Below are positions 3,027 to 60,823 of a stretch of DNA of 64,000 nt, piece by piece. This DNA is from a virus. Every line of letters begins with the position of its first letter. Positions within the stretch are counted from its first letter, which is position 1. The notes beneath the pieces were generated by a model that made no database searches, had not been told where the DNA came from, and saw only the letters and a program-made list of their open reading frames with translations. Position numbers and translations under genes: made by a program. The stretch lies in IMG/VR virus record IMGVR_UViG_3300050821_003907, positions 96,001 to 160,000 of that record; one strand, written 5' to 3'.

Positions 3027-5228
3027 GTGACTTACAACACCGTTACGCTGCAAGGCAACGTAATCTACACCAACGGTAGTGGTGACGTTGTCACGGTTAC
3101 GCTGATTCCTACGACATGGTATTACGACATCCCGAATGACACCATTGTCAATCCGCAGTCCCTTTCAGCTACGGCTAACTCTGCGGGTGCGTGGTCTATT
3201 GCCGGGATTATCGACCCGACACCTGACGGCTCAGGTATTCAGTGGACACTTACGGTCAAGGACGCTAACGGCACTACGGTGCTGTACAGTCAGCACGTGC
3301 AAATTGGGTACACTAACGGAGCCACGCAACAGTTCCTGGCGCTTGCCCCTTCGGTAGCTAATACCTCTTTGCTAACTGCCCTTCCCCTTCCGGCAGGCAC
3401 TGCCACAGCTGGGCAGGTTCCCCTTGCCGCAGGCAGTACATCTAATTCCACGTGGGGTAACAACACCGCATTCCTTAACGTCAAGACCATGTACGGTGCT
3501 AAGGGTGACACTAAGAATGTCACTGACGGGGCCATTACGGCCAGCAGCAAGACTCTCACTAGCGCTAGTGCTAACTTCACGTCAGCAGATGTTGGCAAGA
3601 CTGTCATAGTAGCGGGCGCAGGTGCATCAGGTAGTTTCACTACGCTAACCACGACTATCGCGGCTTATGTGTCTTCTACGTCTGTCACGCTTACCGCTGC
3701 TGCGACGAATACGGTTAGCAGTGCAGGCGTATGCTATGGTACTGATGATGTCAATGCTATCCAGAATGCAATTAATGACGCGCTGCTGGCAAGCGTGGGC
3801 ACCCCTAATAACACTAACGGCGCTACGGTTTACCTGCCGCCAGGCCGTTACCTGATAGCTAGCGCGGGCTTGCTTCCCGGTTACTACACCAGCGGGTCCA
3901 CAGTTGGCTACCCGGCTTCTACGGTTACCTTCCAGGGAGCTGACCTGTCCAGTACATCGCTAGTTGCGGGCAGTCAGTTCGTGTTTAACGGGATGATTGC
4001 GTATGGTCGCGGTGGTACGCACATCAACGTATGCCAGATGAATTTTTCAGACATCACGTTTGACGGTAACTGCGCTCAGGGCCTCGGGGGCGCACTGAAC
4101 ATTGACAATGCGGGTGGTGGCGGGCTTGTTGCACTGCCGTGGCCTGGCACGAGTGCCTACACAGGCGCAGGTCTCATAAACAATGTCCGTTCAGGCCGTT
4201 ACCACACGTTCATGCGCTGCAAGTTTTACCGGCCTACAGGCTACGGCTTCCAGCCGACAACAGGCATCAGGCTACTCGGTTGCGAGCTCATGAACATGGG
4301 GCAGTACAACACGGGAGCCGGTGGTTACGATAACCTGGGGTCGGGCCCGGCAGATGCTATTGTAATCGGCTGTAACTGGCACGATTCCAGCGGTAATTTT
4401 TGCGACTTCGTTTCAGGAACTCCCGGTGACTTCATCCGGATGATTATGATTGGCTGTACCAGCACTAACCACACCGCTGGAGGTGCCTGGGGCCTGGGCC
4501 AGGGGTCAGTATTCGTCGGCAACAGCCTGCAAAATAATACCGATGTAGGCTCTGCCGTGTTCTACGATGCGGGAACCGCAGCGGCAAACAGGAGCCGTAA
4601 TGTCGTTACGGGAAACGTGCTGGTTAACATGAACGGCACGGGAACCAATGCTTACGAAGCTTACTGGAACGGGCAGTACGGCGATATTTACACCGCAAAC
4701 TCCATCGGAGACGGCACGCTGGGCACTACTGTTCTTCTGGACAGCACGTCAGGCAATGTTAACAACCTTAACTACGAGCCAGCAGCACTTAATGCGTCTC
4801 TCACGAATGTGGCAATGCCAGGCGCAGGAGATGGTGTTTACACCAGGCTCACCACGTGGGGTAACTCTTCGAGCAGCGTCACGGTCAACATCGCTAACTC
4901 ATCAGGCAACATCTGCATTGCCTTGTATGCCCCGAACTCTACCGGAGGACCTGGTAACCGGATGGCCACTACGGGTTCGGTGGCTTCACCAGGAACAGGC
5001 TTGCAGACGATTAACTTTACCTCGACGGTTATACCCGGAGTAGGCTGGTGGATTGCCATTGCCGCCGATAATAACTCAGTTACATTCAAGGGCTTCGCCT
5101 CTAGTGCAGCTACTGCACCAGACGGGGACTCATATTGCTTCGCTGCTGCCAGCCAGATGCCGTTGCCTTCTACAGCTCCTGCCATTTCATCAGCTATAGC
5201 GCCGAACTTTGTGCTGTTGTCTGCGTAA
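3027..5228 (+). CDS. tailspike/tail fibre with pectate-lyase-like beta-helix (putative depolymerase)
   Basis: Thr/Ser/Gly/Asn-rich; GTDDVNAIQNAINDA..GATVYLPPGRYLI is the typical N-cap of a right-handed beta-helix; AGGAG RBS. Confidence 0.7.
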   Translation: MTYNTVTLQGNVIYTNGSGDVVTVTLIPTTWYYDIPNDTIVNPQSLSATANSAGAWSIAGIIDPTPDGSGIQWTLTVKDANGTTVLYSQHVQIGYTNGATQQFLALAPSVANTSLLTALPLPAGTATAGQVPLAAGSTSNSTWGNNTAFLNVKTMYGAKGDTKNVTDGAITASSKTLTSASANFTSADVGKTVIVAGAGASGSFTTLTTTIAAYVSSTSVTLTAAATNTVSSAGVCYGTDDVNAIQNAINDALLASVGTPNNTNGATVYLPPGRYLIASAGLLPGYYTSGSTVGYPASTVTFQGADLSSTSLVAGSQFVFNGMIAYGRGGTHINVCQMNFSDITFDGNCAQGLGGALNIDNAGGGGLVALPWPGTSAYTGAGLINNVRSGRYHTFMRCKFYRPTGYGFQPTTGIRLLGCELMNMGQYNTGAGGYDNLGSGPADAIVIGCNWHDSSGNFCDFVSGTPGDFIRMIMIGCTSTNHTAGGAWGLGQGSVFVGNSLQNNTDVGSAVFYDAGTAAANRSRNVVTGNVLVNMNGTGTNAYEAYWNGQYGDIYTANSIGDGTLGTTVLLDSTSGNVNNLNYEPAALNASLTNVAMPGAGDGVYTRLTTWGNSSSSVTVNIANSSGNICIALYAPNSTGGPGNRMATTGSVASPGTGLQTINFTSTVIPGVGWWIAIAADNNSVTFKGFASSAATAPDGDSYCFAAASQMPLPSTAPAISSAIAPNFVLLSA

Positions 5229-5314
5229 TAATTGACACATTAACTCTTCGCATGTAAGCTTTCACATACCACCTCGGGATGGACCTGAGGAGCAAGAACC
5301 CACGGAGGGTTATA

Positions 5315-6259
5315 ATGGCGCGAGCCGTCCCGCAGGTTGTACGGAAGTATGAGCAGGTTACCTATGAGCGTGAAGTGCTCGGTAATGAACCTGTCAAGGA
5401 ACATCGCGAACCCAAGCTCATCGATACCAAGATTGACGTCAATTTCTACCTGACTGAAGAAGAAGCCCAGCATCTTTATACCGCCCTGGAAATGGGCATT
5501 GATGCTATGGGTAAGGAAGTCAGGAATTATGGGACTCACCGGTCTATGGTGTTGCCTGGGCGTGAGCCGATTAGCTCCACCGCAGACTGGGATGGAGCAT
5601 TCAAGGCAGGCAAGTCTCTAGCAGACATTCTTTTTGACGCTCTCATCACAGCAGTGGAGCACCGGACGGTCGATGAGGAGCCGGAAGAGCCTAAGAAGAT
5701 ACCGGAAGACCTAATACTGTCTGAACTCCCATTCCGTTTGCTTGAATACTATGCTGGGCACCTAGGGCTAGGCGGTAATAGCAAGAACGGTCGAGAATTC
5801 CTTATCAGGGAAGCTGCTTTCGGACGTACCTTTATTGAAGACCACGTAGAAGAAGCAGAGACAGAGCTAGAATCACTAGGATTCCTGCAATGGGAAGTTG
5901 TACCTAACACACCTGAGGGTCTGATTCTTAAGGTCACTGATGCCGGGCGCGTGTTCTTGAAGGCATCTAAGGCGAATACAGTGAAGTCTTTTGCGCCTAT
6001 TAAGTGGAGGAATTACGACACTAATCTGCTAGGCGTAGGGCGTCCTGCGCACAAGGATTCCTGTACTGTCCAGGCTAATCACCACCTTCCTCATTGCGAG
6101 GCAGTAAATAAGTGTGATGCAAAAGCATGTACGTGTGCGGAGGCATTTCCGGAGCGTAATGTAGTGAAGTGGAAGGACCACACTGAGTGCTTTGAAGGCG
6201 GTGGCTGCTTTAAACTTACTCCTGAGCAGGAGAAGGCAGCAGTACACGACGATAAGTAG
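5315..6259 (+). CDS. hypothetical protein with possible winged-helix and Cys/His-rich C-terminus
   Basis: GGAGG RBS; LESLGFL...LKVTDAGR resembles a wHTH wing; C-terminal C/H clusters. Confidence 0.6.
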   Translation: MARAVPQVVRKYEQVTYEREVLGNEPVKEHREPKLIDTKIDVNFYLTEEEAQHLYTALEMGIDAMGKEVRNYGTHRSMVLPGREPISSTADWDGAFKAGKSLADILFDALITAVEHRTVDEEPEEPKKIPEDLILSELPFRLLEYYAGHLGLGGNSKNGREFLIREAAFGRTFIEDHVEEAETELESLGFLQWEVVPNTPEGLILKVTDAGRVFLKASKANTVKSFAPIKWRNYDTNLLGVGRPAHKDSCTVQANHHLPHCEAVNKCDAKACTCAEAFPERNVVKWKDHTECFEGGGCFKLTPEQEKAAVHDDK

Positions 6260-6303
6260 CAGACAACTTACTCTCTCCCTTGTGGTAGACTCGGTCCTAG
6301 CTC

Positions 6304-6912
6304 ATGAGGAGCACAAGGGAGAGAGTAAACAACATGAAGAATATTATTGTCAACACGTCCGCTAATGGCATGGACCATGTCACGCAAGGTGACTTCTGGA
6401 AGACCACAGCCACCAATGGCGCAGGTCTCGTAGCAGATATCTTCAAGAACCCAGATAAGCTAATGGCTACCTTTGCACACGTGACTGCGGTTAAGTTTGA
6501 GGATGAGCCAGCTCTCGGCGGAGGCGGCGGTGGAGCTATTCCATGGAAGGCATGGGAAGCTTCGTACGAGTACAGGTCTAGTGTAGGCGCTGAAACTAAA
6601 ACTGAGCCAGTAGCGAGTCAAGTGCAGTCTCTTGAAGATGAATGCCGCATTATAGGACTACCTACGTGGCGACTAACCGCACTCCACGAGGGTAATCCTG
6701 TCGTTAATGTATATACCCGCGAAAGTTGTGCGTCAGGGAATATGCTACACGTAGCTACAATCGTCGTTAAACCGGATGATGAGTTTAACATCACAGAAAA
6801 CGCAACGGCTGCTGGTAGTGTGCTTCGGACACACTACACCGACTTCACCAAGTTGGTAGTGGACCTTCTTGACGCCGCCCAAGCTATCAAGGACGCCGGG
6901 AATACCGAGTAG
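6304..6912 (+). CDS. hypothetical protein
   Basis: Long ORF; TAGACT -10 at 6286-6291; start may be 6334. Confidence 0.6.
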   Translation: MRSTRERVNNMKNIIVNTSANGMDHVTQGDFWKTTATNGAGLVADIFKNPDKLMATFAHVTAVKFEDEPALGGGGGGAIPWKAWEASYEYRSSVGAETKTEPVASQVQSLEDECRIIGLPTWRLTALHEGNPVVNVYTRESCASGNMLHVATIVVKPDDEFNITENATAAGSVLRTHYTDFTKLVVDLLDAAQAIKDAGNTE

Positions 6913-6933
6913 CCTGACAACGTTGTAGCGAGG

Positions 6934-7034
6934 GCAGGCGGGAGCAGAGTTCTCCAGCGGTCAAGAGGGCCGTACCCGCGCCACGCGGGATTTGTTTCTT
7001 ACGGGAGAGTTGAACTAGCTCTGCTCCCGCCTGC
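6934..7034 (+). ncRNA. candidate structured ncRNA (about 101 nt)
   Basis: Perfect 16-bp inverted repeat (6934-6949/7019-7034) enclosing further hairpins; intergenic; no U-tail. Confidence 0.45.
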
Positions 7035-7054
7035 ATCTGACCTAGGAGACCGGT

Positions 7055-7471
7055 TTGTCGGGGTTCATGACGCAGTACCTGCGGGGGGACGGGCGTCCTA
7101 CGCATGACCTGAGCAACCTGATGCTTGGCTATAATCCGGAAGTGCGTTATGACCGGGGATGCCGGTTGTCTGACATCGACGGGGTGCTGGATAGTCGCGG
7201 TAAGGTCTGCTTCGTGGAGATGAAGCATCCGCATGAGGGAAGTGACCGGGGCCAGAGGCGTCTGTACGAGGCGCTAGCGCGGCTAGGAGCGGTCATGGAG
7301 CTGACAGAGTACCCCGACAAGCAATGGGCTGGACGCGTCTTCTCGTTGCGCTGGGGCTTTGATTGGGTGCTGCCCGATGTGGCGGCTGTAGAGCAGTTCG
7401 GTTTTTACTGGGCTAAAGACGCTAACATTTACATCAGTCAGGGGAGTACCCCGGAGGGAGCATTGCCTTGA
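7055..7471 (+). CDS. putative PD-(D/E)xK nuclease
   Basis: SDIDGVL...FVEMK and GQ helix; AGGAGA RBS before TTG. Confidence 0.55.
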   Translation: MSGFMTQYLRGDGRPTHDLSNLMLGYNPEVRYDRGCRLSDIDGVLDSRGKVCFVEMKHPHEGSDRGQRRLYEALARLGAVMELTEYPDKQWAGRVFSLRWGFDWVLPDVAAVEQFGFYWAKDANIYISQGSTPEGALP

Positions 7472-10577: not shown

Positions 10578-11128
10578 TGAACGAGTCATCAGCTATAGCG
10601 TGGTTTCTGCACGCGCTAGATACTCCACGTGGCCACGTTATAGCTGATGAGCTAATGACCATGGCACAGTCCGCAGAATTTCCTGTAAAGCCATTCATCA
10701 CCTGGGTAGCGGTAGGGCAATGGGAAGATGTCACACTACGGAAAGCTCATGTCTGGAGCAAGCAAAATCCTACAGGGTCAGTTCTTTATACGCACACCAA
10801 AGGTGCTTTTCACGAATGGGATACCCAAGCTCCGTGGCGCAAGGGGATGGCGGAACGCTTGATGTACCCGTGGATGGCCCGGTTGCAAGACCTTACTGCT
10901 TACGATACCGTGGGCGTCTGGTGTGTTACTCCCGAAGAGTTTCCCGGCTTGGCAGACTGGCCTTATTATCCAGGTAACTTCTGGTGGGCACGAGCGAGTT
11001 ACATGTCACAGCTCACTGAGCTCCCCGTTCTCACAGAAGAGACCCGAGGAAAAGCTGAGGGGTGGGTTACTTCTGGAAACCCTGTGGTGCATGCTTTGCA
11101 GCCTGGTTGGCCTACTTTTCCCGTCTGA
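10577..11128 (+). CDS. conserved viral protein, possible glycosyltransferase-like (HTKG...GNFWW)
   Basis: VLYTHTKG and YPGNFWWARASY motifs; coupled to upstream stop. Confidence 0.45.
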   Translation: MNESSAIAWFLHALDTPRGHVIADELMTMAQSAEFPVKPFITWVAVGQWEDVTLRKAHVWSKQNPTGSVLYTHTKGAFHEWDTQAPWRKGMAERLMYPWMARLQDLTAYDTVGVWCVTPEEFPGLADWPYYPGNFWWARASYMSQLTELPVLTEETRGKAEGWVTSGNPVVHALQPGWPTFPV

Positions 11129-13114: not shown

Positions 13115-13160
13115 CTAAGCACGGTATCCTTTGAGAGAGTACTCAACCCTGGAGGATACC

Positions 13161-14234
13161 GTGCCTATTGCTCGCTCTCTTAAGACCCTCAAGACGAGGG
13201 TCGCCTCGGCATTCACGCCGCAGCTTGGCGCGCTCAAGGGCACGCCTGTCATCTACATGGAAGACGCTGTAACTGTAGGCGACCTTCAGCCGGGTTATCC
13301 TGCGTACGCTGGTTACTACAACGGCACTTACGCCAACCTGACGGCAATGCGCCAGCGCTTCCCGAATGCTTACATCGTGAGCGTGTCTCCGGACGGCGCT
13401 AACGGTTCCATGTGCATCGACATTGAGCCAGGTGACGCGGTCCCTGGTGATGCTCCCGGCTTCTGGCACAACGCCAGTCACGGCGGCGCAATCAAGCCGT
13501 GGTTCTACGGCAGTGCAAGCTGGACGCAGTCTATCGTCAATGCCCTCACCGCAGCAGGAATCCCGCGTTCTGCTTACTTCATCTGGTCTGCACACTACAT
13601 CGGCGCGCACATCTGCGGACCTGGAAGTTGTGGTTACCCGCAGGCAGACGCTACTCAGTACGGCAGTAACAACGCTTACGACACGTCTATAGTACCGACT
13701 TACATGGTCGGAACTGGACCGCTTCCGCCGCCGCAGGAGCCTACAATCAGTGAAGGCAGCACCGACAAGGCTGCTGTTGACAAGCTGCGCATTCTTCTTG
13801 ACTCGCACAACGCAAAGCTAGGCAACGCTGATGGTGGCCCGGATGTGTTTGGCCCTGTAGTACTAAAGGCTGTGGAAGAATTCCAGTCTGTCAATAAGCT
13901 GGCAGCTGATGGCGTTGTTGGCCCTGTCACCTGGGCAGCCCTGTTCAGCAAGAATTCTAAGCCCATCCCGGATGGTCCCCCGCCCGTACCTCCCACGCCT
14001 GCACCTAAGGCTCTCACAGTGGCTGAGGGCGTAACCGCTACGGTTTCCTGGGATGTAGTGCCGGGCGCTACGCAGTACGTACTGCTTGTTGCTCAGCAGA
14101 ATGGCAAGGTTTCGTCTTACACGGTGGACACGCCCGGTGCTGAGATATTCGTGAACCGTGGCTGGACATACAAGGTTACCGTTCGCGCTAATGTCAAGGG
14201 TTCCCTGATTGCTTACTACACCTTGGTAGTCTAA
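13161..14234 (+). CDS. endolysin: GH25-like muramidase, peptidoglycan-binding domain and FN3-like C-terminus
   Basis: AGYYNG, IDIEPGD, KPWFY, WSAHY, DATQY; DVFGPVV and DGVVGPVTWAAL (PG_binding_1); GGAGG RBS. Confidence 0.8.
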   Translation: MPIARSLKTLKTRVASAFTPQLGALKGTPVIYMEDAVTVGDLQPGYPAYAGYYNGTYANLTAMRQRFPNAYIVSVSPDGANGSMCIDIEPGDAVPGDAPGFWHNASHGGAIKPWFYGSASWTQSIVNALTAAGIPRSAYFIWSAHYIGAHICGPGSCGYPQADATQYGSNNAYDTSIVPTYMVGTGPLPPPQEPTISEGSTDKAAVDKLRILLDSHNAKLGNADGGPDVFGPVVLKAVEEFQSVNKLAADGVVGPVTWAALFSKNSKPIPDGPPPVPPTPAPKALTVAEGVTATVSWDVVPGATQYVLLVAQQNGKVSSYTVDTPGAEIFVNRGWTYKVTVRANVKGSLIAYYTLVV

Positions 14235-15805: not shown

Positions 15806-16159
15806 TTAGCCATCGTCTACCACCTTCCACTGCTTGCCGTCCTTTATCTCAATGCGCAGGTTGTTGTCCTGCATGTCTTTCTCAACCCGCTGTTCAGGAG
15901 ACTCACCTTTAAACCATAGCTGCCTGTTTACCCACAGTTTGAACAAGGCGTGCTCGGTCATGCGGCGGAATGCACGTCGCTTGTTCATTAGCTGGGAGCG
16001 CTCTTCTCGCGACTCGCCACGTGCACCGGACGGGTGGTGGATGATTCTGATGCCTGTGTTGCTCGTATTCTGGTGTTGTCCACCTGGACCGCCAGCAGAG
16101 AAGTCCTGAACTTCACAGTCTTTTATGGTCACGGAGAACACGTGCTCTTTCTTAGGCAA
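15806..16159 (-). CDS. peptide chain release factor-like (RF-1 GGQ domain; ArfB/PrfH-like peptidyl-tRNA hydrolase)
   Basis: FSAGGPGGQHQNTSNTGIRIIHHPSG...ERSQLMNKRRA. Confidence 0.9.
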   Translation of the reverse strand: MPKKEHVFSVTIKDCEVQDFSAGGPGGQHQNTSNTGIRIIHHPSGARGESREERSQLMNKRRAFRRMTEHALFKLWVNRQLWFKGESPEQRVEKDMQDNNLRIEIKDGKQWKVVDDG

Positions 16160-17994: not shown

Positions 17995-18178
17995 CCAGGA
18001 CGGCAAGCTGAAGCTAGCCGGACGCTATCTCGCCACTAACGAGAAGTACGAGCAGTTCGTGACTGACGATGTTGATGAGCTGCACGAGTGGGTGAACGCA
18101 CAGCAGGGTCCGTGCCACATGCAAGACATCGGATTCTACCTAGGCCCTATCCTAGAGGACATGAACCGTGAACGTTGA
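17984..18178 (+). CDS. hypothetical protein
   Basis: GGAG RBS; overlaps the namH-like start. Confidence 0.5.
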   Translation: MIYNQDGKLKLAGRYLATNEKYEQFVTDDVDELHEWVNAQQGPCHMQDIGFYLGPILEDMNRER

Positions 18179-19556
18179 GCACATAGGCCACGCCGGTTTC
18201 ATCGTCACGTCAGGTGACAAGAAGCTAGTATGCGACCCGTGGTTTAACCCTGCGTTCCTTAAATCCTGGTTTCCGTGGCCTGATAACAGGCACCACATGG
18301 ACGCAGCGCGCACCGCTGACGCCTTGTACATCTCGCATGCACATGAGGACCACTTCGACCGTGAGTTCCTGAAGACGATGCCTGACAAGGGCATTGAGGT
18401 GCTGGTTCCCAGGTTCAGGTCTAGCTATCTTACTAAGGAAATCAAGGAGCTAGGCTTCATTAACGTCCACGAAATGGTCCACGGTTCTACGTACTGGCTG
18501 TTCAAGAACCTTGACGTGAAGATGCTCATTGACCAGTCACACAAGGAAGACTCTGCCCTTCTGTGTGAGGACCTTGAAACAGGTTATCGTTTTCTGAATA
18601 GCAACGATTGCGAGCTAGCTGCAAATGACTGGCCGCAGGACATAGACCTCCTGGCTGCTCAGTATTCTGGGGCGTTCTGGTATCCTCACTGCTATGATTA
18701 CACGCAGTCCCAGCAGGTTGCCAAGGCAAAGGAAGTCGTCAAGAACAATATCGACAGGCTTTGCCGTCGAATCAAGCTCACGGGCGCTAAGAAGTACTTG
18801 CCATCGGCTGGACCAGCTGTATTCCTGGACCCTGAACTGCGGCACTATAACTTCAGCGGTATCTTTCCTCAGTTTGTTGATGTAGAAGAGGAAATTGAGC
18901 GGCAATGCCCGGACATTACATTTCACAGCGCTATGCACGGCGGAATTTACTTCTTTGCTGATTACCTCCATGACCGGCGTCATGAGTGGCAGTCCTGGTT
19001 TTACGAAGACTATGCTCCGGCTGAATCTCACGAACTGGCAGCACATTTCCGTAATCTTGAGCGGACTAACAGCGTGTTCCTGCAAGATTATCGCACCGAC
19101 CTGGCTATCTACTCCGGACGAGATGACTGGCAGGTACAGCTAGGCGTGGTGAAGGGTGAGCTTGAGGAAAGCTTTGACCCGCACTATTTCATGAACGTGC
19201 CACCGCGTGTGCTGCGAGCTGTGCTGGACGGACGGGCTACGTGGGAGACGGCGCTGCTGTCCAATCGCATTAAGCTCAAGCGCAACCCTGATAAGTACGA
19301 TTATAAGCTCATGGGACTGCTTAGCTTCGGAGACCGGCCTGCTCAGACTCGTGCCATGCACCGAGCGCAGCGGGCTAGCGAGACCATTACCCGCGACGGC
19401 CTTATCCTGCCCAGGTATTGCCCCCATGCTGGGGAGGATTTGTCTATCGCAACTATCTGCGATGGTGTTATTGAATGCCCTCGGCATAACTGGTCTTGGA
19501 CAACCTCAGGTGAATGTATTACCGCGCAAATTCCCATTGAGGTGAGAAAAGCATAG
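18168..19556 (+). CDS. namH: NamH-like hydroxylase (MBL fold plus C-terminal Rieske 2Fe-2S); putative UDP-MurNAc hydroxylase
   Basis: GHAGF..CDPWFNPAFLKSWFPWPDN, SHAHEDHFD, QYSGAFWYP..YD, PSAGP..FLDPELRH, WET..LS.R, CPHAG..CPRHNW; collinear with M. tuberculosis Rv3818/NamH as I recall it. Confidence 0.8.
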   Translation: MNVEHIGHAGFIVTSGDKKLVCDPWFNPAFLKSWFPWPDNRHHMDAARTADALYISHAHEDHFDREFLKTMPDKGIEVLVPRFRSSYLTKEIKELGFINVHEMVHGSTYWLFKNLDVKMLIDQSHKEDSALLCEDLETGYRFLNSNDCELAANDWPQDIDLLAAQYSGAFWYPHCYDYTQSQQVAKAKEVVKNNIDRLCRRIKLTGAKKYLPSAGPAVFLDPELRHYNFSGIFPQFVDVEEEIERQCPDITFHSAMHGGIYFFADYLHDRRHEWQSWFYEDYAPAESHELAAHFRNLERTNSVFLQDYRTDLAIYSGRDDWQVQLGVVKGELEESFDPHYFMNVPPRVLRAVLDGRATWETALLSNRIKLKRNPDKYDYKLMGLLSFGDRPAQTRAMHRAQRASETITRDGLILPRYCPHAGEDLSIATICDGVIECPRHNWSWTTSGECITAQIPIEVRKA

Positions 19557-19565
19557 AATTGGGGT

Positions 19566-19994
19566 ATGAACTTCGCGTGGTACTTCGTCGTTTACCACTG
19601 GCTGGAGCTGAATGGCTTCTACAGGGACATCCTGGCCAGTGTTATTGGCCTTGGCGCTGCGCGTACCATAGCGGCACGTCCCCTGCGGGGCGTAAAGGCA
19701 TCTCAGGCACGTCAAGAGGACCTTCTGGATACCAAAACCCCTGGCGGTCTTGCTGAGGTTCACGCGGAACTCAAGGCTTTGCGTCACCTTCTGAGTGACA
19801 CCAGCGAAACCAGTCAAGGGCATGAAGACGAAGACGAGACGCCGGAAATGGACGACAAGGACAAGGGCGGGGAATCTAGCGGCAAGCGAGGCTGGCTTAC
19901 CCAGTATCGCAGGTCCCGTAAGGGACACGGTGGAGCGGGCGTTCCTGAGGCTCCCCGGGAGCCTCCGCATTTTCTGCCGCCAGGGCACCGCTAA
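19566..19994 (+). CDS. membrane protein
   Basis: Hydrophobic N-terminus; ATG 6 nt after TAGAAT. Confidence 0.55.
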   Translation: MNFAWYFVVYHWLELNGFYRDILASVIGLGAARTIAARPLRGVKASQARQEDLLDTKTPGGLAEVHAELKALRHLLSDTSETSQGHEDEDETPEMDDKDKGGESSGKRGWLTQYRRSRKGHGGAGVPEAPREPPHFLPPGHR

Positions 19995-20731
19995 TGACTT
20001 CTAAGTACGAAAAATTGTGCGTCAGATGTAATCAAGTATTTACTACTCTGGATAAAAGACAACGTTATTGCAGTAAAGAGTGTTGGTACTCACATAATAG
20101 TACTGAGGTACTAACTTATACAGAAGCTAAGATTTATTTGAGCAGTATAAAGGCTGCACGAGGTTGCGAGAATTGCGGTTACTGTAATCCGATTGCCTTG
20201 GATTTTGACCACGTTGACCGCTCAACCAAGCTAGCTCCTCTAGCACGTTTGTCTAGAACTAGCGTGAAACAATCAGTGTTGCAGGAAGAATTGGCTAAAT
20301 GTATGGTCTTGTGTGCGAACTGTCACGTCATTAAGACAAGGGATAATCAAGATTGGCGCCGTCCCAGTAAGCGCATTATTTGCGGATTCCTTATAGCAGG
20401 AACAGACTTGTGCCAGTTGAGTTCAGGACATAGTGGCGGTCATAGGCGAATTAGTTCTAGCACTAATACTAATAGTCGCAGAAAGGAGCGCCGTATTTGG
20501 GTAGACGCGCTTAAACTAGCGGCGGCCTGTACAGACTGCGGCTACGATACTGATGCTAGGGCGCTACAGTTTGACCACGTAAATCGTGGTGATAAACTAC
20601 TACCGGTGGCGTCGATGCTTCATTATGACGAAGAGCGTTTGCGCGCTGAAATCGCTAAATGTGTAATTCGCTGTGCTAACTGTCACAGGCTTAAGACAAA
20701 GGCAGGAGGTGAGTATAGGCATGGCTTCTAA
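19994..20731 (+). CDS. endonuclease with tandem HNH domains
   Basis: CENCG..ALDFDHV..LCANCH and CTDCG..ALQFDHV..RCANCH; AT-rich. Confidence 0.85.
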   Translation: MTSKYEKLCVRCNQVFTTLDKRQRYCSKECWYSHNSTEVLTYTEAKIYLSSIKAARGCENCGYCNPIALDFDHVDRSTKLAPLARLSRTSVKQSVLQEELAKCMVLCANCHVIKTRDNQDWRRPSKRIICGFLIAGTDLCQLSSGHSGGHRRISSSTNTNSRRKERRIWVDALKLAAACTDCGYDTDARALQFDHVNRGDKLLPVASMLHYDEERLRAEIAKCVIRCANCHRLKTKAGGEYRHGF

Positions 20732-21086
20732 GTATGCTTCCGGTTCTGTTTACAGGCGGATGGCAAAGTTCGTTTTCGAGCGCTGGGGAGACCGTTGCCA
20801 CTTACACCTTTGCACGCACCACAATGCCCGGCACCTGGACCATGTTGAGCCGCAGACTGAGAACGAAGCACGCAAGCATGACGTGACTAACCTACGGCCA
20901 GTGCATGGCTCGCCAGGGAATCCCTGCCGTGAGTGCTCACAAGCTGCGGGCAAGAACATCTACTGTAATCAAATCAGGGGTGGGTACACCATTGACCGGG
21001 CCATACGGAAGCTGCGAGAGCTTACGGGGCTGCCGATTCCTGACTACGGAAAACCTGCTCAGCAGCCCCGTGCACGCGAGTGGTAA
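20721..21086 (+). CDS. HNH-like endonuclease
   Basis: CHLHLC..LDHVEP..NLRPVHG..CREC..CNQIRG; AGGAGG RBS. Confidence 0.7.
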   Translation: MASKYASGSVYRRMAKFVFERWGDRCHLHLCTHHNARHLDHVEPQTENEARKHDVTNLRPVHGSPGNPCRECSQAAGKNIYCNQIRGGYTIDRAIRKLRELTGLPIPDYGKPAQQPRAREW

Positions 21087-33914: not shown

Positions 33915-36275
33915 TTAAGGCTTCATTCCACGGTGTCGTCGCAGGATTCGCTTGACCATCATCAGGCACTGCAATGCGGTCAGCACAGCCAGGATTCGCC
34001 ATCCTGTGAGGAGGGTGTAGTCCTGCCACGCACCGGGAAGGTGTTGCCATGCAGTGACGATTCCGTAGATGAACCCAATGATGAGCAGCGAGAATCCGAA
34101 AATCTTAGGACCGAAGCCCATTGACTTACCGGATTCTGCCTTCTTCTGCGCAGCCCAGCCATCACTGCCCGTGCCTGTAAGGACCTTGAACGTCGCAACG
34201 GTCATGGACGTTGCCCGGAAGATAAGGTAAAGCTCTACCGGAACCAGCGTTGCTGCTGATACGACATCCAGCGGAGTCCTGTTAGGCATGCGCATTGTCT
34301 GCCGTATGTTAAGCAAGATTGCCAACGCTGGCGGAATCAGCCAGTACCAGGACCAGTCGAACTTGTGCACGGACAACGACGCGGTTAGCATGACGGCGAA
34401 CATCAGGCGCATGAACCCGTTGAATAGCAGTCCCGCTACCTGAGTAGCCAGGGTTGCCGTCCACTTGTTCAGCCCCGATGTCATGATGAGACGCGCGATG
34501 CCCTGGTCCCACTTCTGGCGCTGTGCCCAGAGGGACTTGAGGTTGTGCATGGCACCGGGGTACGCACGCGCCTCAGGGTTAACCGTGGTCTTGTAGCCAA
34601 GCCCTCGCAGGTCACCGGTGAGCTGCATGTCCTCGACCTGGCTGGAGGTGTCCCACGGGACGCCCATGCGCTTCTCTGCCACCTTCAGCAGCGCGCTGGC
34701 ACGGAACAGGCTGAGCTGACCGCCAAGGACGTAGGTGTTGCGCTTGTTGTGCAATAGCGAGTCAGTCCAGTCACTGAACTCCACCCGCTGCATGCGGACA
34801 AGCATTCCCCCCTCTTGGTGGAACGTGTAGCGTGCCATGACGCCCCCGACGTTCCGGTCCTCGCGCAGTTCCGTCTCCAGGTGCTGCAACGCATCTGGCT
34901 CAAGAACGGTGTCAGCATCGACACCCGCAATGTACTCGAAGCCTTTGTGGTGGTGTTCCCATCCCTGGTTAAGAGCGCCGGTCTTCTTGTCGCGGTTGCC
35001 GACAGTCTCCATCACAGTCGCGCCATACTGGCGTGCGATGCCAGCGGTGTTGTCCCCGCAGTTTCCTGTGAGGATTCCCCCGGAAAGTGTGAATTCGTGT
35101 TGTTCGGGAACAACGGCACAGCCTACGGTGAGGTAGGCTTCCGTGTCTCTAACATCAGTGACCATCCATTTGATATTCTCTGCCTTCTTCAGAGAAGCGC
35201 GGTAGGCTGTAGTTTCTTTTCCGTCACTGTAGTTTCGCACGTAAGTTTCCTCCCATCGTCCTATCACCATTAGCCCACCGAAGGGAGCGTAATCTTCTAG
35301 CCAGTCAATGATGTCTGACCTCATCGACGCAGGGTGATTAGACCCGGTGCGCTTGTTCACGTAACCATCGGCCGCTAGATACCCGTGAGTAAATCCTGCT
35401 GCGTAGTTAGCCGTAGGGCTGATTGGTAGGTCCTTAAGATTAGCGGTGTCCTTTACGTATAGAGTTCCTCGGTACTGCGGCGTAGCTTCAGCTTGCGACT
35501 TCACTTGACGAACTTCTTCTTCAAAGAAATCCGCCATGCGAATCTTGTCTGCGTAAAAAGAGACTCGATAAGTACGGACATTGTCTAGGTTGTGGTAAGT
35601 CTGAGTACCGTCTCCAAAAATAAACCCATGTCGAACGCCTGCACGATAATCCTCACTAGCAGTGTCGGCTGACACATCGGTAGACGTGGGAATTACATCG
35701 CCCTTCGTGATGTCAGTAACAACACCTCTTTCGGTAATCCAGCGGTGGTCGGGCGTAACTCGCACTGTCCTACGATAAGTCGTACGAGAAGGTACTCGCC
35801 ATCCTTGCTTTCCGTTACGATAAGTGACGGATTGCGCGGGACCTAGTTCGACTTCTTGAATCCTCTGAACGCCGAACTTTTTAATTTCCGCCTTTTGCCA
35901 CCCACTGCTTGTTAGGATTTCTTGAACCGTACCTGCGGTTTCCCGGAAAGACTTGATGCCTTCACGAGTAAGGTACCTTTCGTCCAGAGCGAAACAGTTG
36001 TCAGCAATGACTACGATGCGGTCTGGCGTTCGCGTCTGCCGCTTAAGTGCGGTGATGGTGATGCCGATGGAATCCTGCTCGTCGTGAGCGGGAATCATCA
36101 CCAGCACGCGGCCGGTCTTGACAGCCTTAACCGGGTCACGATAGCGAATCTTGTCTACCGCACGGGAGACTTCGCCTACTAGAATGCGGGCAGACTGCTT
36201 TAGCTTCTCAGCCGGGCGAAGCCGTGGCGCTCTGGCTGCCGGGGGCTGCCACAACATTACATCTGTCCCTGGCAT
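33915..36275 (-). CDS. processive GT2 polysaccharide synthase (PgaC/chitin/hyaluronan-synthase-like) containing an intein
   Basis: IPAHDE, ADN|C, VDADT (DxD), VEDM (TED-like), QRQKW (QxxRW), multiple C-terminal TMs. Confidence 0.9.
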   Translation of the reverse strand: MPGTDVMLWQPPAARAPRLRPAEKLKQSARILVGEVSRAVDKIRYRDPVKAVKTGRVLVMIPAHDEQDSIGITITALKRQTRTPDRIVVIADNCFALDERYLTREGIKSFRETAGTVQEILTSSGWQKAEIKKFGVQRIQEVELGPAQSVTYRNGKQGWRVPSRTTYRRTVRVTPDHRWITERGVVTDITKGDVIPTSTDVSADTASEDYRAGVRHGFIFGDGTQTYHNLDNVRTYRVSFYADKIRMADFFEEEVRQVKSQAEATPQYRGTLYVKDTANLKDLPISPTANYAAGFTHGYLAADGYVNKRTGSNHPASMRSDIIDWLEDYAPFGGLMVIGRWEETYVRNYSDGKETTAYRASLKKAENIKWMVTDVRDTEAYLTVGCAVVPEQHEFTLSGGILTGNCGDNTAGIARQYGATVMETVGNRDKKTGALNQGWEHHHKGFEYIAGVDADTVLEPDALQHLETELREDRNVGGVMARYTFHQEGGMLVRMQRVEFSDWTDSLLHNKRNTYVLGGQLSLFRASALLKVAEKRMGVPWDTSSQVEDMQLTGDLRGLGYKTTVNPEARAYPGAMHNLKSLWAQRQKWDQGIARLIMTSGLNKWTATLATQVAGLLFNGFMRLMFAVMLTASLSVHKFDWSWYWLIPPALAILLNIRQTMRMPNRTPLDVVSAATLVPVELYLIFRATSMTVATFKVLTGTGSDGWAAQKKAESGKSMGFGPKIFGFSLLIIGFIYGIVTAWQHLPGAWQDYTLLTGWRILAVLTALQCLMMVKRILRRHRGMKP
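35061..35996 (-). mobile_element. intein (312 aa) with LAGLIDADG-type homing endonuclease
   Basis: Starts CFALDERYL, block B VTPDHRWIT, GFIFGDG and GYLAADG, ends ILTGN followed by +1 Cys; AT-richer than exteins. Confidence 0.9.
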
Positions 36276-36298
36276 CTTATTTACCTTTCGCCTTATTG

Positions 36299-37912
36299 TT
36301 ACGGGTTGAGGGTACCGAACCAGGACTGAAGGTCCTGGCCCGCACCTTGAGTGGGACCATCTGGGAGAACGCAGGAGTATGTTCCCGCATCATAACTGTT
36401 AGCCGTGGCAGGACCGCTATTGTCCTGGTTCAGGATTCCAGCGCCGTTAACGTCACCCGTGCCAAGCGTCCAGGCAAGCAAACCTATTCCCTCATCTTGC
36501 AAGTAGCGCAAGTACGCGGGCACTGAAGCAGGGGCATCACCCCAGCACTCACCCACATCACCGAGAGAACCAGGGTTGCCGCTGGTAACTGTCCTGTTAG
36601 TCCACTCTCCGTCAACTACAGGTGCTTGCAGGTGCTTGACGAGCTGCCCGAATTCAGCATCCCAGTTAGCAGTAGTGCGAGCCACACCATCTACAGTTGG
36701 GTGATGGAACTCATACACTGTAAGCTTGTCCGGGTCCGTAACGTGCCACGAGCTAAAGTTAGACGCAACACGGCCAAGCCCCAGCTCACCCATGACTCCG
36801 GGGAATTGCGGTGTCTCGTCCCACAGCATGTTCGTGTAACCGTTAGCGCGAAGCGTTACCGTTAGCTGGTTCATGCCGATGTAGGTGGTGTCGCCTGAGT
36901 ATCCGCCGTTAAGCCACAAGCTCCACATGGAGTTATCAGTCATGGAATCATCCGAACGCGGCTCGTTAAACGGGTCAATGATTACAGACTTGTCACCTGC
37001 TATAGTAGGGGCTAGTGCTTTCCACACGTTGACTGTAGTTTGCGTGGGCAGCGGCTGATTGTCGTGAGCAATAGGGTCGGGTTCTGTTTGGTCAACAATG
37101 ACCACCATAAGCCCGTCAGACTGAGCATGGCTGATAACTTGCTGTAGACCGGAAAGGTAAGCGGAGTCCACATCTCCGGTAGCAGGGTCAACAAGCGTAT
37201 CCTGGCTGATGAAGATGCGAACGGTGTTGGCGTGCCACGAACTAGCGCTAACATCTTCCTGGTCTTCTGCCTGGCTAATCCATGAGTCATACTGCGGCTG
37301 CCCAGAACCATCCAGGTACCACTTGTTGTCAGGCTCGCCGGGGTCAGTGCCGTACGGGTACTGCGTGCCGTTGAGGTTCATTCCCAGCGGCAGGTACAGC
37401 TTGCCGCCCACGACCATGTTCACGCCGCTTAGAGAAACGTCACCGCGTGCATTGCTGAAGCCGGGGAACGCCACGCCGTTCATTACCCAGTGCCCGTGAA
37501 AGCCCGCACCTGCGGTCTTAGCCGTGATGATGCCGGGAAGCGCATAGCTCCAGTGCTGTGCGTTATCCTCGTTACACTGCCACATCTGGCCTTTAATGGG
37601 GTTACGGTTTCCTGCGTTGTCCAGGCAGTAAGCACCACCGCTAGCCCGCATGGTGAGAGTCCCGTCCAGGGACATGTTCCACTGCTGCTCGTTAGTGCCG
37701 TTACAGGTTTTGCCTGCCACTGCAACGCCGTCCTTTGGCGTCCCTGTAAGGCACTTCCCACCGCTGGTGATGGTACCCCAAGGCATGGAGTTGACAGGCT
37801 TGTAGTGCAGCGGGGGACGGTGCTTAGACGGGGAACTGTACGCTGGCGTGGCAGCGCATGCTGACAGCAATATGCTAGGCAGCAAAGCCGCTGCTAGCCA
37901 GCGCATCTTCAT
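36299..37912 (-). CDS. lipoprotein with ricin-B lectin domain and GH5 (cellulase-family) glycoside hydrolase
   Basis: Lipobox LSAC; (Q)xW repeats GKCL..CNGTNEQQW and CNEDNAQHW; GH5 motifs NTVRI, FNEP, EFHHP, VDGEW, GLLAW. Confidence 0.9.
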   Translation of the reverse strand: MKMRWLAAALLPSILLSACAATPAYSSPSKHRPPLHYKPVNSMPWGTITSGGKCLTGTPKDGVAVAGKTCNGTNEQQWNMSLDGTLTMRASGGAYCLDNAGNRNPIKGQMWQCNEDNAQHWSYALPGIITAKTAGAGFHGHWVMNGVAFPGFSNARGDVSLSGVNMVVGGKLYLPLGMNLNGTQYPYGTDPGEPDNKWYLDGSGQPQYDSWISQAEDQEDVSASSWHANTVRIFISQDTLVDPATGDVDSAYLSGLQQVISHAQSDGLMVVIVDQTEPDPIAHDNQPLPTQTTVNVWKALAPTIAGDKSVIIDPFNEPRSDDSMTDNSMWSLWLNGGYSGDTTYIGMNQLTVTLRANGYTNMLWDETPQFPGVMGELGLGRVASNFSSWHVTDPDKLTVYEFHHPTVDGVARTTANWDAEFGQLVKHLQAPVVDGEWTNRTVTSGNPGSLGDVGECWGDAPASVPAYLRYLQDEGIGLLAWTLGTGDVNGAGILNQDNSGPATANSYDAGTYSCVLPDGPTQGAGQDLQSWFGTLNP

Positions 37913-59488: not shown

Positions 59489-60823
59489 TTACCTCCCCAT
59501 CATCTTGTTCAGGCGGTCCTGCGCAGTCTCCTGACTGGCAGGTTCAGGAACGGGTTTAGCCGGTCCCGGCTCTGTAACGGGCTCAGACGGCTTGGACACC
59601 TCAGCCTTGGGCGTGGCCGCGCGTGAGCGCTTCAGCCCGTCAGCGTTGGCCTTGGGGTCGTCTGCAAGCCCTAGCTCAATCTCCCACTGCTCAGGCTCAT
59701 CGCTGGTAACCTCTGGCTCGGGATACTTTGCCTTGAGCAGCGCGTTCGCAGCGGGAACGACATCATCACGGAATCGCACGCGCACGGTCTTGCCCTGGCT
59801 GCCGTCCCACTTGGGAGTGGAGTCACAGTCAGCCGCGCGGTGCATCAGGTCAACCAGTCCCTTGCTCGTCAGCCCGTCGTAGACCTCACCAGCGTGCGGC
59901 ATGGTCAGCAGCCCGTCAAACAGGGTCTTGACTGGCAGGTGCTTCGCGCCCTTGTTAGCCCGGAACACATCGGCCATGTCCAGTAGCGCCTGCTCACGCG
60001 GGGTGAGCACCGGACGGTCAGACTCATCTAGCGCCAGTTCCTCGAACGCCATGAGGCACCGAACCGGCCACTCGCCGCCAGCAGCAGCGGCAACGGCAAA
60101 GAGAGGCATGAACACCTCAGCCTTACGGTTGACCAGCTTGGGGTGCATGCGACGGCTAGGCGTGTTACGCGCCCAGTTCTTAAGGTCGTCCTTAGTGGAC
60201 CGCACCCAACGGTGCAGAGACTTACTGTACGCCTCACCAAGTACGATAGTGTCATCCGCTCCCGTGGGGCGAAGGTCCATTGAACCAGGCTTAGGGTCCA
60301 TGTCGATGACGATGCACCGCGAGAGAAGGTCACTGGGAACAGCGTTACCCAGTCCCGCGAGGAAACACATGCCGTAAATGCTCACTAGGTTAGCGTTATG
60401 GCCAGAACTGAACAGGTGGGTTGCGTTATTCCGGTAACCACGCAAGAACGGGTCATACAGCGGATGCGATTGACCACCAAGACCATTACGGCCAAAGATG
60501 TGGTGAATCTCATCCTTAACGACGGACAGTGCAGGCTTACCGTCATTGTTGATGTACGCACTCGACAGACCGGGAGTAGTGCCAGAGCCATCAAGGGGGT
60601 TGCCCGCTAGAAGCTTGGCGATGTCTAGCGCCGTAGTCTTACCACTCTGAGCCGAACGCCCACGGAACATAACACGGGGAACCGCCGTGAACGCATCGCA
60701 CGCATGGCTAACAGCCAACGCAAGCGTAAAGGCGTCCAACTTAGCCGGGGAAGCGTAAAGAATTTCTGACACGAAACCGTGAACTTCGTCCAGAACAGTG
60801 CTATCAAAAGTAACGTCCGTCAT
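59489..60823 (-). CDS. DUF3631-type P-loop ATPase (putative replication/helicase-like protein)
   Basis: Walker A GRSAQSGKTT, Walker B KDE, SRCIVI.M, P....R....PL.AVA..AGG.WP. Confidence 0.7.
   Translation of the reverse strand: MTDVTFDSTVLDEVHGFVSEILYASPAKLDAFTLALAVSHACDAFTAVPRVMFRGRSAQSGKTTALDIAKLLAGNPLDGSGTTPGLSSAYINNDGKPALSVVKDEIHHIFGRNGLGGQSHPLYDPFLRGYRNNATHLFSSGHNANLVSIYGMCFLAGLGNAVPSDLLSRCIVIDMDPKPGSMDLRPTGADDTIVLGEAYSKSLHRWVRSTKDDLKNWARNTPSRRMHPKLVNRKAEVFMPLFAVAAAAGGEWPVRCLMAFEELALDESDRPVLTPREQALLDMADVFRANKGAKHLPVKTLFDGLLTMPHAGEVYDGLTSKGLVDLMHRAADCDSTPKWDGSQGKTVRVRFRDDVVPAANALLKAKYPEPEVTSDEPEQWEIELGLADDPKANADGLKRSRAATPKAEVSKPSEPVTEPGPAKPVPEPASQETAQDRLNKMMGR

Follow-up and report, generated by a model that had tools for sequence, protein, structure and literature searches.

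An intact oxygenase gene in a large phage genome

The 64,000-nucleotide stretch analysed here, referred to throughout as the window, covers bases 96001-160000 of the viral genome in IMG/VR record IMGVR_UViG_3300050821_003907, a single contig of 181,160 bp with 54.7% GC. Between window positions 18168 and 19556 it carries a complete gene for a protein of the NamH/CMAH superfamily, in which a metallo-β-lactamase (MBL) fold and a Rieske domain are joined in one polypeptide; after its predicted activity, we call it the hydroxylase. The features of the locus, in window coordinates, are as follows.

18155-18159, plus strand: ribosome-binding site GAGGA, 8 nt 5' of the GTG start, read off the sequence
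18168-19556, plus strand: complete gene (GTG start, 462 aa) for a NamH/CMAH-superfamily Rieske and MBL-fold oxygenase of the phage branch of clade A (defined below), from the list of open reading frames (ORFs) and the translation
18168-18872, plus strand: MBL-fold catalytic domain, UlaG-like, at the N-terminus (roughly residues 1-235, with an approximate boundary), from Pfam, conservation and Foldseek
18873-19367, plus strand: middle helix/sheet domain, about residues 236-400, boundaries approximate, from alignments and the secondary structure of the model
19368-19553, plus strand: Rieske [2Fe-2S] domain, short and C-terminal (roughly residues 401-462), whose ligands C418, H420, C437 and H440 do not vary in clade A or in canonical NamH

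An earlier, sequence-only reading of this DNA had taken the ORF for a phage gene, and both its exact coordinates and its viral setting stand. CheckV rates the record as 98% complete, and PHROGs matches identify a large terminase, portal, prohead protease, major capsid protein, head-tail adaptor and DNA polymerase in the genome, in which the hydroxylase gene is single-copy; within the window there are genes for HNH endonucleases, for a class II ribonucleotide reductase and for an endolysin containing a PG_binding_1 domain. When the terminase was compared with those of 50,697 deposited phages, its nearest relatives all came from actinophages (of Arthrobacter, Rhodococcus, Mycobacterium and Gordonia), at only ~33% identity, and for this reason we consider the genome to be that of a novel large phage which probably infects an actinobacterial host. 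Neither WhiB nor a cutinase-type LysB was found in the phage genome, and a mycolic-acid-containing host is therefore not indicated.

Architecture of the predicted enzyme

The two catalytic parts made out from the letters alone, an MBL domain with an HxHxDH motif and a C-terminal Rieske domain with CxH and CxxH ligand pairs, are both recognised by Pfam above its curated cut-offs, as Lactamase_B_3 at residues 3-88 (E 2e-7) and Rieske at residues 416-453 (E 3e-6), and their ligands are conserved. The MBL domain carries the HxHxDH metal motif (H57, H59, D61, H62) together with D64, D128, N146-D147, QYSGAxWYP and PSAGP. The motifs lie at residues 22-40 (CDPWFNPAFLKSWFPWPDN), 57-62 (HAHEDH), 165-173 (QYSGAFWYP) and 212-216 (PSAGP), and those of the Rieske domain at 418-420 (CPH) and 437-440 (CPRH). 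Invariant in an alignment of 35 homologs are H57, H59, D61, H62, H105, D122, K126-E127-D128, N146-D147-C148, S167-P173 (except F170), P212-P216, C418, H420, C437 and H440, whilst the HxHxDH, S167-P173, P212-P216 and Rieske ligand positions are at least 95% conserved in both of the subfamilies described below, with the exception of S213. The NamH-like motifs quoted in the earlier reading are all present and, judging from these alignments, are family signatures and not chance resemblances. The order of the domains was also described correctly: MBL then Rieske, as in NamH (PMC10050696), as opposed to the N-terminal Rieske domain of CMAH (PMC5767959).

An AlphaFold2 model built from a 35-sequence alignment (mean predicted local distance difference test, pLDDT, 88.4; predicted template modelling score, pTM, 0.88) comprises an MBL sandwich (~1-235), a helix/sheet middle domain (~236-400) and a short Rieske domain (~401-462). 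Alignments relate the middle domain by homology, though with strong divergence, to the part of canonical NamH covered by SCP2_Rv3818, and show it to be free of an insertion of 25-30 residues found in cellular clade-A proteins. The best PDB folds that Foldseek returns for the catalytic domain are FrsH (8a90) and CmlA (4jo0/5kik), MBL-fold diiron hydroxylases that rank above generic MBL hydrolases, and the Rieske part has PDB sequence matches to SxtT, KshA and NdmA; for the whole architecture of MBL, middle and Rieske domains, there is no solved structure. The concern that the best hits might turn out to be unrelated MBL hydrolases has thus fallen away, and a hydrolase function was rejected on two counts, the oxygenase character of the nearest folds and the presence of a Rieske domain. 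The sole NCBIfam match, to a generic metal-dependent hydrolase model, fell below threshold, and a PHROGs search with the hydroxylase returned nothing meaningful. Both metal-ligand motifs occur in a single polypeptide that is homologous over its full length to a characterised member, as befits the NamH/CMAH superfamily.

A clade apart from canonical NamH

A search of 5.8 billion proteins found 568 homologs of the hydroxylase. Cellular homologs at 42-47% identity come from Kitasatospora, Amycolatopsis, Microbispora, Pseudonocardiaceae and a Rhizobium, and several of them are automatically named 'UDP-MurNAc hydroxylase', after the NamH substrate UDP-N-acetylmuramic acid (hereafter UDP-MurNAc). 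When 185,579 species genomes were scanned, two identity classes emerged. The first, at ~42-45%, includes Amycolatopsis, Pseudonocardiaceae, Sphaerisporangium, Kitasatospora, Embleya, Frankia and Gordonia rhizosphera, as well as Rhizobium subbaraonis and a Gemmataceae; we call this clade A. The second, at 28-31%, covers Mycobacterium, Mycolicibacterium, Nocardia, Rhodococcus and Acidimicrobiia, and is canonical NamH (clade B). Its representative in Mycolicibacterium septicum lies downstream of UbiA, PAP2, GlfT2, Glf and Rv3811-like cell-wall genes and carries SCP2_Rv3818 (PF25451), the Pfam domain named after Rv3818; on the strength of this synteny and this domain, we take it as the Rv3818 ortholog.

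The split between clades A and B has a support of 100 both in FastTree (96 rows) and in IQ-TREE under LG+C20+F+G4 (40 rows), the latter placing the two ~2.8 substitutions per site apart. In BLASTP the phage hydroxylase is 30% identical to M. septicum NamH over 511 columns, full-length, with an E of 2e-51, as against 47% (E 1e-148) to the clade-A protein of Kitasatospora terrestris. The clades have a common core of 51 residues conserved at 95% or above, every putative metal ligand among them, and differ strongly in the middle domain and near the SHKED segment. PF25451 was not detected at E<=1 in the phage hydroxylase, nor is it on record for any clade-A protein that we looked up, although the equivalent region in the phage protein still aligns and so reads as diverged, not absent. 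In Gordonia rhizosphera a clade-A gene occurs together with a canonical NamH that shares 73% identity with the one of M. septicum; the two clades are therefore paralogs able to coexist. Only clade A is present in the genomes tested of Amycolatopsis sacchari, Kitasatospora, Embleya and Sphaerisporangium; descriptions of these four genera give their muramic acid as N-acetylated.

The sequence-only reading had the protein follow NamH Rv3818. This is right in so far as the two are full-length homologs with the same order of domains, and it goes too far as regards kinship, considering the low identity and the fully supported separation. The phage protein lies outside the Mycobacterium/Nocardia/Rhodococcus clade, its middle domain is not recognised as SCP2_Rv3818, and its clade can share a genome with canonical NamH and stands among DegT, SDR and glycosyltransferase genes, away from the cell-wall gene context of NamH proper. 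It is not an Rv3818 ortholog and belongs to a separate, largely phage-borne branch, within clade A.

The genomic surroundings of the two clades differ as well. In Kitasatospora terrestris (locus L093, 6605-12609), a GFO/MocA oxidoreductase, a short-chain dehydrogenase/reductase (SDR), a DegT aminotransferase, the clade-A gene and a second DegT follow one another with overlapping stops and starts. In Amycolatopsis (locus L094, 7948-21506), GFO/MocA, SDR and the clade-A gene are followed by a large surface protein and then by glycan genes, in the order glycosyltransferase GT1, DegT, GT4, DegT and a hexapeptide acyltransferase. Within ~5 kb of cellular clade-A genes, we found GFO/MocA at 11 of 14 loci, an SDR epimerase/dehydratase at 11 of 14 and DegT at 7 of 14, compared with 0, 2 and 1 of 66 loci, respectively, for clade B. 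The conserved operon (GFO/MocA, SDR, sometimes DegT, hydroxylase) recurs in 11 of the 14 cellular loci, including one Planctomycetota (Gemmataceae) genome. Cellular clade-A genes thus stand in amino-sugar operons and canonical NamH in a cell-wall (GlfT2/Glf/UbiA) locus, whatever the widespread automatic annotation of the former as MBL hydrolase or UDP-MurNAc hydroxylase.

All this bears on the function first proposed for the gene, in which a working NamH hydroxylates host UDP-MurNAc to UDP-MurNGlyc and thereby alters the peptidoglycan of the host, for instance in how readily lysozyme or endolysin attacks it. Several points speak for the proposal: the protein is a full-length NamH homolog with conserved metal ligands, the automatic annotation of JGI calls its close relatives 'UDP-MurNAc hydroxylase', the terminase suggests an actinobacterial host, and in the window phage the gene stands outside the sugar cassette described below and ~4 kb downstream of an endolysin gene. 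However, names of this kind are automatic labels and not tests, three genes on the opposite strand lie between the hydroxylase and the endolysin, and the phage, having neither LysB/cutinase nor WhiB, gives no indication of a mycolata host. Moreover, the protein falls on the far side of a split with 100% support from the Rv3818 clade and has no detectable SCP2_Rv3818 domain; its clade occurs alongside true NamH in Gordonia and as the sole copy in the tested Amycolatopsis, Kitasatospora, Embleya and Sphaerisporangium genomes; and clade-A neighbours, in phages (RmlB, DegT, GNAT and glycosyltransferase genes) as in cells, are amino-sugar genes and not cell-wall genes. We regard the conversion of UDP-MurNAc as improbable, and the rewriting of host peptidoglycan is the least supported reading.

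A phage-borne branch tied to an amino-sugar cassette

The closest relatives of the hydroxylase within clade A are ~40 short metagenomic proteins (460-480 aa) without a 25-30 residue insertion of the cellular forms. We examined nine loci of this short type (the window, L005, L087-L092 and L103), and all nine lie on phage contigs or on contigs syntenic with the window: L005 and L087 show synteny with it, and L088, L089, L090, L091, L092 and L103 have capsid, portal, protease or terminase genes on the contig. (In L103, at 5112-7430, the prohead protease gene, of the Peptidase_S78 family, has an intein containing an HNH endonuclease.) In the 50,697 deposited phage genomes, tblastn found no match for the hydroxylase and no NamH/CMAH-family gene, and megablast of the 4 kb surrounding it found nothing. 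IMG/VR yielded just one close relative (L005) and one distant one (L006), and no link between phages and NamH was found in the literature searched, where the text matches were false ones to the species names namhaensis and namhicola.

The distant relative deserves a word of its own. This second viral contig (IMGVR_UViG_3300037991_008248, L006 1-15488) holds a very divergent member of the NamH/CMAH family, at 28% identity and on a long branch on the clade-B side of the tree. Its neighbours are a KdsA-like DAHP_synth_1 gene, a CMP-sugar cytidylyltransferase and methyltransferases and, further, a UDP-sugar dehydrogenase, an epimerase/dehydratase and an AdoHcy hydrolase, an arrangement reminiscent of a CMP-ulosonic acid pathway.

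In the five loci L088-L092, the hydroxylase gene sits inside a cassette a few kb downstream of the capsid gene, in the order GT1/4, GT2, GNAT acetyltransferase, sometimes methyltransferases, DegT aminotransferase and hydroxylase. In L089-L091 the next gene is an SDR 4,6-dehydratase resembling RmlB; in L088 such a gene stands close by on the opposite side, and in L092 none comes right after the hydroxylase. The DegT stop and the hydroxylase start touch or overlap in L089 and L091, and in L089-L091 the hydroxylase stop overlaps the dehydratase start, the latter overlap suggesting translational coupling. The window phage has an orthologous cassette between its capsid and adaptor genes, at 35.6-42.7 kb of the genome. 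Its genes are given here in the numbering of locus L001, in which 10630-11118 corresponds to genome positions 35630-36118.

L001 10630-11118: VIT1-like ORF
L001 11327-12382: glycosyltransferase, GT1/4
L001 12201-13115: glycosyltransferase, GT2
L001 13115-13582: GNAT acetyltransferase
L001 13579-14739: DegT aminotransferase
L001 14739-15912: two methyltransferases
L001 15831-16973: dehydratase
L001 17123-17719: third methyltransferase

Between the window phage and L088-L092, identities are 50-57% for DegT, 55-57% for the dehydratase, 39-50% for GT1, 38-46% for GT2 and 36-50% for GNAT, next to 45-68% for the capsid protein and 48-55% for the hydroxylase, which diverges at about the rate of the cassette. 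For the dehydratase the nearest match is to dTDP-glucose 4,6-dehydratases (RmlB, E 1e-44); the aminotransferase comes closest to TlmJ and ArnB, which are C4-aminotransferases. The small ORF that heads the cassette is of the VIT1 family (iron transporter-like) and is 50% identical to an ORF in the same position in L092 (4105-4551), a curious companion for a cassette with an iron enzyme among its ancestral members.

In the window phage itself, the hydroxylase lies ~74 kb from this cassette, and a closely related genome that CheckV rates 100% complete (G006) has the same split layout together with an orthologous cassette. The simplest history is that the hydroxylase was ancestrally part of the cassette and, in the sublineage to which the window, L005 and L087 belong, was relocated to a site ~74 kb distant. 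Inside the cassette in some lineages and co-inherited with it in others, the gene keeps company with a glycosyltransferase and sugar cassette of the virion module. The small ORFs that flank the hydroxylase have no Pfam domain. Just 3' of it, two overlapping ORFs of 245 and 137 aa (window 19994-21086, plus strand) have repeated CxxC...CANCH motifs typical of HNH endonucleases and no Pfam match at E<=0.01; mobile endonuclease genes adjoining the relocated hydroxylase could be connected with its move.

Perhaps, then, the gene has been a decaying leftover, non-functional ever since it left the sugar cassette and its partner genes, from which it is now distant? The selection analysis contradicts this. 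Compared with its 91% identical counterpart in L005 (a 163.5-kb IMG/VR genome, 100% complete by CheckV), the window gene has a synonymous divergence (dS) of 0.755 and a nonsynonymous divergence (dN) of 0.061, a dN/dS of 0.081, and is under strong purifying selection. The frame is intact, every catalytic ligand is kept, and the same layout is found in a second complete genome and in a relative at 70% (L087). Pseudogene status was rejected at this dN/dS of 0.08, and we hold the decay of the gene to be barely credible.

Proposed substrate and competing readings

The analysis shows an intact gene with conserved metal ligands, purifying selection, its place in clade A, its linkage to the cassette in relatives and the orthology of the cassettes; from gene order and family membership we infer a chemistry, a substrate and a destination. 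As in NamH, which hydroxylates the N-acetyl group of UDP-MurNAc to N-glycolyl (PMC6378297), and CMAH, which does the same for CMP-N-acetylneuraminic acid (CMP-Neu5Ac; PMC5767959), the phage enzyme would act on the N-acetyl methyl of a nucleotide sugar; that both characterised members do so is our reason for proposing the same reaction. The Rieske [2Fe-2S] cluster would receive its electrons from a donor of the host, there being no gene for a ferredoxin, cytochrome b5 or flavin reductase in the phage, and would pass them to a non-heme iron in the MBL-fold domain, which would activate O2 and hydroxylate the N-acetyl methyl to N-glycolyl on a nucleotide-activated amino sugar. Its ancestral position within a cassette of RmlB, DegT and GNAT genes points to the product of that cassette as the substrate. 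Following the usual route to such deoxy-amino sugars, of RmlB, WecE/VioA and WecD-type steps, the cassette should convert host dTDP-glucose to dTDP-4-acetamido-4,6-dideoxyhexose, on which the hydroxylase would then act. The cassette glycosyltransferases would place the N-glycolyl sugar, possibly also O-methylated, on a phage-directed glycan. Virion proteins are the likeliest destination, considering that the cassette lies between capsid and connector genes and that, in the passages of PMC11256854 and PMC12582341 that cite Freeman et al. 2023, capsid glycosylation is documented for the mycobacteriophages Che8 and Rita. We judge this whole chain, in which a dTDP-4-acetamido-4,6-dideoxyhexose made by the phage is hydroxylated on its N-acetyl group and probably serves for virion glycans, to have a somewhat better than even chance of being correct.

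Several points weigh against it. The N-acetyl hydroxylation is deduced only from membership of the superfamily, and the cassette GNAT has no close characterised relative that we could find, so that the N-acetyl step is itself an extrapolation. In the window, L005 and L087, the hydroxylase lies ~72-74 kb from the cassette amid small ORFs of no assigned function; its linkage in the window is historical, not physical, and the relocation could have been accompanied by a change of substrate. The searches found in the phage genome neither an electron donor (no Fer2 ferredoxin, cytochrome b5 or flavin reductase) nor an RmlA-type nucleotidyltransferase. Attachment to the virion rather than to the host surface is argued from cassette position and analogy, and the only clue to the host is the similarity of the terminase to those of actinophages.

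Could the sugar be meant for the infected host instead? The hydroxylase might act on an N-acetyl sugar destined for a host surface polymer and not for virions, for example in superinfection exclusion, the candidates being the product of a membrane GT2 synthase and glycoside hydrolase family 5 (GH5) module of the phage, or a host wall glycopolymer. The window does encode a 786-aa membrane GT2 (Glyco_trans_2_3), of processive type, adjoining a 537-aa protein with a ricin lectin and a GH5 cellulase-family part (33915-37912, minus strand), a second and separate glycan module of the phage; the hydroxylase lies in a non-structural part of the genome, and cellular clade-A clusters include large surface proteins and glycosyltransferases. 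Yet the hydroxylase has neither a physical nor a phylogenetic link to the GT2/GH5 module, and five relatives embed the gene in the capsid-proximal cassette, between virion genes. On balance, we think a host-surface destination unlikely.

A different oxidation altogether would be the other way to read the same protein: of a C-H elsewhere on the sugar, of a methylated sugar by demethylation, or of a substrate that is not a sugar. Iron oxygenases of the Rieske and MBL-fold kinds have a wide chemical repertoire, the substrates hydroxylated by the closest solved folds (FrsH and CmlA) are amino acids, the middle domain and SHKED segment are strongly unlike those of NamH, and three methyltransferases lie within the cassette. 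Against this, both characterised members, NamH and CMAH, carry out the N-acetyl to N-glycolyl conversion on nucleotide sugars (PMC6378297, PMC5767959), and the steady co-occurrence of the hydroxylase with GNAT and DegT, which together create an N-acetyl group, fits the proposed reaction. We consider another oxidation distinctly unlikely, and hydroxylation of the cassette product remains the reading that we favour.

Comparison with known systems

The likeness to NamH (Rv3818 and namH of M. smegmatis, in Mycobacteriales) extends over the N-terminal UlaG/MBL fold, the middle domain and the C-terminal Rieske domain (PMC10050696), with HxHxDH, QYSGAxWYP, P-AGP and both Rieske ligand pairs among the 51 common residues. 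However, the phage protein is phage-encoded, ~55 residues shorter and without an SCP2_Rv3818 Pfam match, and its phage relatives are found in RmlB/DegT/GNAT/glycosyltransferase cassettes, whereas NamH belongs to a GlfT2/Glf cell-wall locus. With CMAH of deuterostomes it shares Rieske and MBL-fold iron centres and, if our prediction of the phage activity holds, the conversion of N-acetyl to N-glycolyl on a nucleotide sugar; CMAH is eukaryotic, acts on a CMP-nonulosonic acid and has its Rieske domain at the N-terminus (PMC5767959).

Where electron supply is concerned, CMAH depends on cytochrome b5; in the hydroxylase phage, no cytochrome b5 gene was found. The nearest cellular relatives of the phage protein, the clade-A proteins of Kitasatospora, Embleya, Amycolatopsis, Pseudonocardiaceae, Streptosporangiaceae, Gordonia rhizosphera and a Gemmataceae, are 42-47% identical over the full length and likewise lie in nucleotide amino-sugar operons, beside DegT and SDR enzymes. 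They are longer (~500-520 aa) owing to the 25-30 residue insertion that the phage forms do not have, and their operon partners are GFO/MocA and SDR, in contrast to RmlB and GNAT in the phages.

FrsH and CmlA (8a90, 4jo0, 5kik) are the best structural matches, and such an MBL fold supports O2-activating iron chemistry; they differ in their 13-16% identity, in having no Rieske domain and in acting on carrier-protein-bound amino acids. Finally, the virion-glycosylation cassettes of the actinobacteriophages Che8 and Rita, as presented where PMC11256854 and PMC12582341 draw on Freeman et al. 2023, also consist of phage-encoded glycosyltransferases and sugar-modifying genes. There the glycans are on capsid proteins, whilst in the hydroxylase phage lineage, whose cassette stands between capsid and connector genes, they are predicted from the genes.

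Other genes of the window

The putative endolysin (13131-14234, plus strand) is recognised in its C-terminal half, by PG_binding_1 (residues 230-271) and by weak PHROG endolysin matches; its N-terminal ~190 residues have no family match, and tblastn found no match for it in the 50,697 phage genomes. Co-transcription of the hydroxylase with this gene was rejected, given the three minus-strand genes in between. One further gene (15806-16159, minus strand) encodes a 117-aa RF-1-domain protein of the GGQ type, like the peptidyl-tRNA hydrolase and ribosome-rescue factor ArfB, and keeps its syntenic position in the 70% relative L087. A 444-aa DUF3631-domain protein is encoded at 59489-60823 (minus strand).

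Implications

The enzyme family and its architecture are already known. What is new is a coherent phage-borne branch of it, seen at all nine loci examined; a branch that we found neither in the deposited phage genomes nor in the literature searched; and the link of this branch to a capsid-proximal deoxy-amino-sugar cassette. A practical consequence concerns annotation, since automatic annotation is giving the name 'UDP-MurNAc hydroxylase' to members of a paralogous clade, phage and actinobacterial alike, that probably act on another substrate.

The conversion of N-acetyl to N-glycolyl is rare, and to our knowledge just two enzymes bring it about, NamH in the peptidoglycan of mycobacteria and CMAH in the sialic acids of animals; the products of both have strong immunological effects. 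It is tempting to go one step further and propose, tentatively and at somewhat less than even chances, that large and probably actinobacterial phages make an N-glycolylated 4-amino-4,6-dideoxyhexose and display it on their virions. No N-glycolylation system encoded by a virus would have preceded this one, and the NamH/CMAH chemistry, so far that of UDP-MurNAc and CMP-Neu5Ac, would gain a third class of substrate. The sister group of the phage branch would then be a cellular clade of actinobacterial amino-sugar operons. If the predicted chemistry is true, these phages make an N-glycolyl deoxy-amino sugar, which is not yet described in viruses, by a virus-encoded N-glycolylation pathway that would itself be new, and this would bear on the glycan shields of virions, on the recognition of phages by hosts and antibodies, and on enzymatic routes to N-glycolyl sugars.

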